From the IMG/VR virus record IMGVR_UViG_2880372215_000003: 52,839 nucleotides of DNA; one strand, written 5' to 3'. Position numbers: made by a program. Below, piece by piece: positions 1-3,000 of this stretch. The DNA comes from a virus (Duplodnaviria > Heunggongvirae > Uroviricota > Caudoviricetes). How positions within the stretch are numbered: the first letter of the stretch is position 1; each line of letters begins with the position of its first letter.

Positions 1-3000
1 ATGAAGATCGTAAAGGCTGAAGTTTTTGTTACCTGTCCGGGGCGTAATTTCGTCACATTAAAAATCACCACTGAGGACGGTATTACACCATAAATTTTTG
101 GCTTGCTGATTTCTGCACGCATCGATAAGACGGATGAATTCCTCCCGCGAAAGAGGATCCGGAATGGTTCTTGATTCCTTTAATGGCGAGATCCCCTTAA
201 ACGGGTTATCTGCCAGGTAACCGTTATCAACACCAAACTGGAACACGGCGTTAAGATTTGTCATGTAATTATTTACAGTTACAGCCGATCTCCCTGGTTG
301 TGTAACAATATAGTTACTTTTGGGGATCTGGTATCCAGTCAGTAGCTCTTTACGAACCTCCAGTAATTTTTCTTTATTAATCGATGAGGCAAGATTTTTT
401 TCACCGATTATGCTCAGGATATTTTTGATGACGGCACGGTATGTGTTGAGTGATGTTTTTGCGACTTCAGTTTCTTTCAGTGCCAGAAATTTTTCAGCCA
501 GTTCTTTTATGGTTAAATCTTGTCGGGCCTCACCAAATTTTTCCAGATTGCGTGAGGAGGGAAACTGTTTTGCATAGTCGAAAACACCAGTTTTTATTGC
601 GTAACAAACAGAGGCGCGTAGCTCACCTGCAACGCGCCTGTTTTTTGCTGTGTCAGGAACCCCAGGTTTTCCCTGACTCTTACGCCTTTATAAACAAACC
701 AGATACGTAATTTCCCTCCATGGTTTTCCACGCCTGTCGGATATTTCATTTCAACTTCTCTCATTAGTTAGTGTGGCTTTTAGTCAAGTAAGATGACGTC
801 TTGGTCTTGCTGATGCCTGGCGCTCAATCCAGCGATCAATTTCTTCCAGGTTGTAAAAGCATGGACTGTTATCCCATGGCATACCGTCATGAGCGACATG
901 CTTATATTCCCTTCCTTCCATAAACGATTTTTCCCGGGCCTTTTTTAACGTACCTTTTTTTATTCCTTTCAGCGCAATTAACTGCTCTTCGGATACCCAT
1001 TTGCCGGGAGAGACAATCATGATTACTTCGCTCATCGATTTCTTTATCTCTTACATCAGACGAGCGCCGGTTGCAGAATACCAGTCACAACCGGCGACAG
1101 TTGAACATTAAGAATCAGCCTGACTCGGGATCAGTTTTTGCCAGATAGCTGAAACGTATTTTGCCTGGTAACGGGCGTCATCAAGTGCATTATGGCGCTC
1201 ACCTTCGAATGGAATAGCCGTTCTGGCATCGAAGTCTATGGCTTTCCCCAGCTCAACGATTGTGCGTACATCGCGATCGTTGTAGTAACGCCACGGGCAG
1301 GGGCTCCCCTGCCGTTCGTATGAACGGCGCAAAATCGTGTTGTCGAAGTTGGCTCCATTTCCCCAGACATGAACAAAAAATTCACCGGAGTTTTCGTCGA
1401 TAAATTCCCGCAATTGTAACAGTGCATCATCTAACGGGATTTCATCGGTCATAATGGCAGATTGCGCTTCGCGTGATTGTTTAAGCCACCATTTCATGGT
1501 GTCCCGATCAATGACTCCGCCAGCAGTATCCAGATCGATAGTCTTACTAAATTCCGGTCCCATATCTCCGGTTTGCGGATCGAAAAATATTGCACCTATT
1601 GAGATAATCGGGGCATCGGGATTTTTTCCCATGGTTTCAAGATCGATCATCAGATGAATCCCCGCTCTGCTGGTGGATGTGAGATTATGATGACCGTTCG
1701 CCTTAATTAAGGGATCTGACGCCTCGCCAGTTTCACTATCGCTGGCATGATGCTGATTGCCGCCAGTGTTCTCCTTGTGCTGATGTGCAGTACCTTCCAT
1801 TTCCTCCGGATCATTTTCCTGAACTTCAGGCTGATTCTCTCCATCGAATATTTCCTGGTATGTTGCGTCACCCATCACCGCACCACAATCAGGGCAGTTG
1901 CCGCCACCGCTCTGACCGCAGGCGGTGCAGATCTTTTCCGGTTCCTGTTGCACTACTGGTTCAGGTTGTTTCGTTTCTGGCTCGTTTTGTTGCGTATTTG
2001 GGCTGTTTTGTTCCGCTTTCTGGTCGTTCTGTTCCGTTTCTTGCTGGTTCTGGTTCACAGAATCGCGGGTCTGGATCCCCTTAACCCATTTCGGATCATT
2101 CGGGTCGCTAATCCCTTCAACAAATTCACCACGTGATACTGCAAGCAGTTCCTCGGCGTCAGGCTGGCTGATATTGGCTGCCTGCATAATTTTCTTTACT
2201 TCGTCAGCGGTAACTTTTACCGGTTCTGGTTGTTCAGAATTTTGTGCGGTATTTGCATTTTGCGGTAAGCCTGTGTATGTGCCATTTTTTCGGGCAAAAT
2301 ATTCTTCTTTTGTGATTTCAGTAGCCCCGGCAGCCAGCGCCTTATCCAGACCAGAAAGTTTGTTTGCGCGACCGTATTTTTCGCCATCCTTGTCGGTGAA
2401 GAGGAAGTAGAACGGCCCCTCACGTTCTACAGATGGTTCGACTTCCACTTTGCATTCGGTTTTTTCGTTGTCTGGAATTGCCGTTTCCACTGCATCAGTT
2501 TCTGGTACTGGCGACGAGAGAGTATCAGTTGCGCTCTGATTTGTTCCTTCATCTTCAAACACGCCCTTTGTAGTCAGGTATTCAGTAATGTATTTGTTCA
2601 GTGCCACAGGGTCTTTGTGAATGTCGATCGGACGTTCACGGACAAGGCCAAAAATAGTCTGGCGGTCGTAGCGAAGGGCATCAGGCTGTTTGCGCATTGA
2701 TGCCGAGATACGCTTCCAGTCTTCGCGGCCGTTGTCGATAACTTCATTTTTTGCCCAGCGATGGATGCTGCCGTCAATGTTTCCGGCATCCACATCACCA
2801 GGCCAGAGAGCGTAGGCCAGTTCGTCATCCAGTGTTTTCCATGTCTGCTTGTATTCGCGATGAATGGCAGCAATGACCGGGTTGATTTTTCCTGTTGAAT
2901 TTTCAGTGTGCTGTTGATTGGCTCTGGCGCGGGCGAGATCAACAACAGACGTGTATTTTCCGGCTTCCTTGCGTTCACCTTCGCGACGTTTTTTCCAGAT

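Follow-up and report, generated by a model that had tools for sequence, protein, structure and literature searches.

The stretch of DNA analysed here (52,839 nucleotides, virus record IMGVR_UViG_2880372215_000003, called the window throughout) opens with the start of the E. coli gene rspA, which runs directly into the front half of an integrase gene on the opposite strand. The features at this end of the window are as follows.

1-86, plus strand: 5' fragment of host rspA, nucleotides 1-86 (28 codons plus 2 nt), 100% identical to K-12 and to strain WP7-S17-ESBL-01; a partial CDS without its C-terminus in the PGAP annotation of EDL933.
1-93, plus strand: fused open reading frame of 30 codons (RspA residues 1-29, then Pro, with TAA at 91-93), from the ORF list and the junction alignment.
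85-86, no strand: deletion junction, with 2 bp of microhomology (AC) between rspA nucleotides 85-86 and integrase codon 222, from the overlap of BLAST segments and a three-way alignment.
85-749, minus strand: integrase pseudogene (intR in Sakai, ECs_5736), the first 222 of its 426 codons, with the arm-binding and core-binding parts and no catalytic domain, from alignments, a Pfam scan and the EDL933 and Sakai annotation.
660-663, minus strand: homopolymer run shortened by 1 bp, from G5 to G4 as read on the coding strand, which puts the integrase out of frame after codon 30; alignment to the intact gene shows no other gap.
784-1035, minus strand: intact excisionase gene, 83 aa (WP_000005552.1 in EDL933, DEC5B and strains with an intact integrase; PF06806, E 1.6e-31).

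On the host side, window 1-86 matches nucleotides 1-86 of rspA exactly in both K-12 MG1655 and WP7-S17-ESBL-01, and the rspA promoter region lies upstream of the window (202 of 205 nucleotides identical to K-12). Beyond the junction codon 29 is still Thr by chance, and is followed by Pro and by a stop codon at 91-93 that is supplied by the antisense strand of the integrase gene. This reading frame, together with the exact rspA match, bears out the original prediction, which had described a truncated integrase fused to the first 28 codons of an rspA-like gene. RspA is an enolase-superfamily dehydratase (mandelate racemase/muconate lactonizing enzyme family). When mapped on the intact 404-aa protein its MR_MLE_N and MR_MLE_C domains occupy residues 13-110 and 188-379, respectively, and only residues 1-28 (29 with the chance Thr) are left in the window.

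On the prophage side, window 85-1200 is 99.6% identical, with a single gap, to the minus-strand integrase and excisionase genes of the intact prophage that adjoins rspB in WP7-S17-ESBL-01. The integrase is a lambda-type tyrosine integrase of the IntQ/IntR group, specific for ydfJ, and the part that is kept corresponds to residues 1-222 (ending ...QQAKNLWC). The single gap is the loss of 1 bp from the C-run at window 660-663, in integrase codon 31, so that the sequence as it stands is in frame for the first 30 residues only and the shifted frame reaches a stop codon at 594-596. (A frameshift had been anticipated near 590-610; its existence is upheld, and the stop of the shifted frame, not the lesion itself, lies at that position.) In the frameshift-corrected 222-aa fragment, the arm-binding domain (PF12167, E 2.2e-24, residues 4-67) and the core-binding SAM-like domain (PF13102, 22.7 bits against a cutoff of 22.3, residues 83-185) are present, and PF14659 and PF24624 score slightly under their cutoffs. 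Consistent with the expectation that the catalytic domain (Arg, H-x-x-R, Tyr) was missing, PF00589, which Pfam places at residues 201-392 of the intact 426-aa protein, was not found in the corrected fragment, and no catalytic domain was found in any reading frame of the window's integrase. The motifs TGVRPGEL (residue 227), SRHTYA (358) and QVYGKW (390) all lie past the break at residue 222.

The dinucleotide AC at window 85-86, where the two matches overlap by 2 nt, is the sole homology at the join. Neither an IS element nor an attachment sequence was found at the junction.

Extent of the missing DNA, its distribution and its identity

Comparison with two intact loci, those of WP7-S17-ESBL-01 and O55:H7 DEC5B, gives the same offset between the two flanks, 2,964 bp. 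The missing stretch takes in integrase codons 223-426, the attachment core in ydfJ together with the ydfJ 5' stub, the whole of rspB, and everything in rspA past nucleotide 86, which is 93% of that gene. In the intact loci both the C-terminus of the integrase and the body of rspA lie within this stretch, in agreement with the earlier proposal that a deletion had taken the integrase 3' end, the attachment site and most of the rspA operon. We derived the attachment core by comparing the uninterrupted ydfJ of an ST131 strain, the spacer between rspB and the integrase gene in DEC5B, and the ydfJ/Sp11 and Sp11/Sp12 junctions of Sakai. The exact shared core is TTATGGATTTC, which lies within ydfJ, a gene that is interrupted about 85 nt from its start. 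The phage-arm form of the core, TGAATTATGGATTTC, has no match anywhere in the window, even with up to 2 mismatches allowed.

The distribution of the junction was measured with a 45-mer (window 64-108) for which neither parent sequence alone can seed a megablast match. Of 5,426 complete E. coli genomes, 294 contain it, each at a single place with 100% identity, and among the 60 junction genomes listed all of those with a stated serotype are O157. A second 45-mer (window 640-684), specific for the frameshift, occurs once per genome in 300 genomes; of the six beyond the 294, one is O55:H7 DEC5B. The body of rspA and rspB are present in 5,082 genomes, and with the 294 junction genomes this makes 5,376, as against 5,380 in which one or other flank occurs. 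Window 1-1100 matches EDL933 at one place only, no part of it being present a second time, and in this respect the original proposal is not refuted. The arithmetic of these counts, the single-place matches and the literature fit with the body of rspA and rspB being missing from the 294 junction genomes. (Note that the integrase is ~99.9% identical in about half of E. coli genomes, 2,706 of them at a coverage of at least 80% when the full DEC5B integrase gene is the query; because of this a ranking by the DEC5B integrase did not single out pre-deletion frameshifted strains.)

This region is the integrase-proximal end of Sp12, a cryptic lambdoid prophage of E. coli O157:H7 that sits at the Qin-type site in ydfJ, adjoining the rspAB operon. 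Over most of its length the window is collinear with and nearly identical to Sakai Sp12, and ynfA lies directly upstream in both EDL933 and Sakai. In Sakai the annotation reads 'prophage Sp12, lambda-like phage' at 2204089-2255027, with the pseudogene intR (ECs_5736) at its end, adjoining ynfA; in EDL933, ynfA, ynfB and speG lie upstream and both halves of the fusion are annotated by PGAP as partial pseudogenes. Sakai 2225001-2255080 corresponds to window 1-30073 at 99.95% identity, and the integrase pseudogene has the same boundary in both; for window 32598-48024 the identity to Sakai Sp12 is 99.99%. The scar is the known dead end of Sp12: real, ordinary and already described. In Sakai, Sp11 and Sp12 lie in tandem in ydfJ, the same site as that of Qin in K-12 and the one to which Zhou et al. 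2010 (PMC2806823) assigned phage Ep9 in O55:H7 CB9615.

Qin offers an instructive comparison. It shares with the window its site in ydfJ, its integrase family (98.5% identity between intQ and window 85-629), the neighbouring genes dicB and ydfC, and its state as a locked, defective prophage with a damaged integrase. The damage, however, is the reverse. In K-12, where the intQ pseudogene adjoins ynfP, rspB and rspA, the N-terminus of the integrase was removed by IS2E, and the 3' end of the gene, the attachment junction, rspB and rspA are intact, whereas in the window it is the 3' end and the host operon that are gone.

Order of the two lesions and competing explanations

The prophage of O55:H7 DEC5B matches window 85-1100 with 0 mismatches and carries the same frameshift, and over 5.6 kb its identity to the window is 99.3%, as compared with ~94.5% for unrelated strains. 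It differs in retaining the 2,964 bp lost in O157:H7, that is, a full-length integrase gene, rspB and rspA, and is the exact pre-deletion allele; its end sits in ydfJ with a normal attachment sequence. Because DEC5B has the frameshift and lacks the deletion, the frameshift preceded the deletion. This order of events is the small addition that our analysis makes to a picture otherwise already known. The deletion is dated to after the split from O55:H7 DEC5B, and no more finely than that, and the junction sequence is a clean marker that tells O157:H7 from this O55:H7 strain.

(DEC5B also carries a nonsense mutation in rspA, Q246*, at codon 246 (locus L009, 2133). We entertained the idea that rspA was already a pseudogene in the O157:H7 ancestor before the deletion; a 45-mer for Q246* is present in only 4 of 5,426 genomes, three of which are unlabelled strains from a fish and two dogs, and so rare an allele is not projectable onto that ancestor. 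The mutation looks private to DEC5B rather than ancestral to O157:H7.)

Taken together, these observations are best explained by a frameshift followed by one 2,964-bp deletion at the integrase-proximal end of Sp12, a reading to which we assign a probability of about 0.95. In the first step, 1 bp was lost from the G5 run at integrase codon 31, already in an O55:H7-like ancestor. In the second, a single deletion in the O157:H7 lineage, probably by illegitimate recombination, joined rspA nucleotide 86 to integrase codon 222, in convergent orientation and with 2 bp of microhomology alone. Such a sequence of events would leave the locus as it is found, with the start of rspA fused to the front half of an already broken integrase gene, and with the integrase catalytic domain, the integrase-side attachment core, the ydfJ stub, rspB and 93% of rspA gone. 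The sequence relationships, the endpoints, the distribution among genomes and the order of the two lesions can be read directly from the comparisons. Less probably, the event was an adjacent deletion mediated by an IS element that left no trace.

It is very improbable, to the point of being close to refuted, that the missing half of the integrase gene and the body of rspA were moved by inversion or translocation rather than deleted. Large rearrangements mediated by prophages and IS elements are real in O157:H7, where genomes invert between prophages; the window is itself a chimera of Sp12 and Sp9 joined at ISEc8, the two ends of the window lie 440 kb apart in strain 8368, and Sp11 of Sakai holds a C-terminal integrase fragment. 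In DEC5B and other intact loci, however, the flanks are parted by one contiguous stretch of 2,964 bp, and the genome counts (5,376 of 5,380) fit loss, as does the single place for window 1-1100 in EDL933. The Sp11 fragment begins at residue 249, reaches only ~95% identity and continues into the exonuclease remnant of Sp11 itself, which marks it as a separate remnant, and rspAB has been reported lost in O157:H7 (PMC2806823).

Still less credible is an artefact of assembly or sequencing, either a chimeric join or a homopolymer error producing the frameshift. Frameshifts at homopolymers are common in long-read assemblies, and one instance of the same frameshift, in strain FCI55, could be such an error; yet 294 complete and independent assemblies share the identical junction, and 300 the frameshift, always once per genome and with Sakai and EDL933 among them. 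(FCI55 is an unrelated strain with a 94.5%-identical prophage whose integrase gene (locus L010, 3831-5110) has the same C-run frameshift and is otherwise full-length; the frameshift there is either homoplasy at a homopolymer or a homopolymer assembly error.)

Direct integration of the phage into rspA, with nucleotide 86 as the attachment site and the short integrase as a natural variant, would recall phages that integrate into the 5' ends of genes, as well as the interruption of the normal target ydfJ itself ~85 nt from its start, but it is refuted by the DEC5B intermediate, whose identical prophage end lies in ydfJ, has the usual attachment sequence and keeps an integrase gene of full length; moreover, the integrase reading frame of 426 codons is broken midway, at codon 222, shortly before the first catalytic Arg, and no attachment core is present at or near the junction.

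The deletion and the frameshift have different bearings on the fate of the prophage. The original prediction held that the deletion locked the prophage in place; that the deletion removed the integrase 3' end and attachment site stands, but it was not what caused the locking, as DEC5B has the frameshift without the deletion. Since the integrase was already dead, the deletion would have made the locking irreversible rather than bringing it about, and would have removed any chance of reversion of the integrase gene or of rescue in trans. What remains is an intact excisionase left without a functional integrase partner, a dead integrase, and no attachment core in the window. We infer that the Sp12 end could not be excised by site-specific recombination even with an integrase supplied in trans, and that RspAB function would be permanently lost. 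Sp3, Sp11 and Sp12 are prophages whose integrase is disrupted and which were predicted to be non-excisable, and no excision, replication or packaging of Sp12 was found (Asadulghani et al. 2009, PMC2669165); rspAB is present in O55:H7 CB9615 and lost in O157:H7 (Zhou et al. 2010, PMC2806823). The scar explains both the non-excision of Sp12 and the absence of RspAB in O157:H7, and is otherwise of bookkeeping value.

The rspA promoter, the distal end and other parts of the prophage

The rspA promoter is now directed into the prophage. The rspAB operon is repressed by RspR, whose gene (rspR, also ydfH; locus L008, 6384-7070), annotated as a transcriptional repressor, has outlasted the loss of rspAB in Sakai, so that in O157:H7 rspR looks like an orphan regulator. 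It is conceivable, though very improbable, that the promoter gives rise to an RspA' micropeptide of 30 aa and, with more plausibility, to antisense transcripts regulated by starvation or by RspR, which would cover the excisionase and exonuclease genes as well as what is left of the integrase gene; if true, this would tie the early-left operon of Sp12 to the sensing of nutrients by the host. When window 1-1200 was scanned for promoter and terminator consensus sequences, one weak terminator-like site emerged on the plus strand, at 432-448, and the scan was otherwise uninformative. We consider this arrangement unlikely to matter.

At its other end the window departs from Sp12, at one further feature.

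45583-48024, no strand: copy of ISEc8 at which the window switches from Sp12 to the distal part of Sp9 (window 40001-48024 is Sakai Sp12 and window 45583-52839 is Sakai Sp9, each at 99.99%).

From position 48025 the window thus differs from Sakai Sp12 in having the distal end of Sp9 in place of the Sp12 distal end and the junction with Sp11. Because of the switch at ISEc8, the window also lacks the distal attachment site that Sp12 originally had. The two ISEc8 copies are inverted relative to each other in Sakai, which implies an ISEc8-mediated inversion of ~400 kb in the source genome. The Sp9 distal end in the window carries espO1-2, nleG, espM1, an IS630 remnant and nleG9, and in strain PA20 the ompW remnant comes next after this end.

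The window also differs from Sakai Sp12 in the tape-measure region (window 30074-34582), which is 388 bp shorter and is ~94% identical over 30074-32603, with an open reading frame of 949 aa against 1,080 aa; this divergence suggests recombination with another lambdoid prophage. The portal gene (26161-28738) and the host-specificity gene J (37075-40543) each appear to be split into several open reading frames, in agreement with the published classification of both functions in Sp12 as disrupted ('D'). In EDL933 (NZ_CP008957.1; locus L004, 13753-33673) the block from terminase to tail assembly is tandemly duplicated, with one copy bearing many frameshifts, and the window is without this duplication. 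Finally, the integrase fragment in Sp11 of Sakai (locus L007, 12273-14050) consists of the C-terminal 178 aa, from residue 249, of the ~95%-identical integrase, fused to a truncated exonuclease gene; the Sp11 and Sp12 integrase remnants are complementary but non-reconstitutable.
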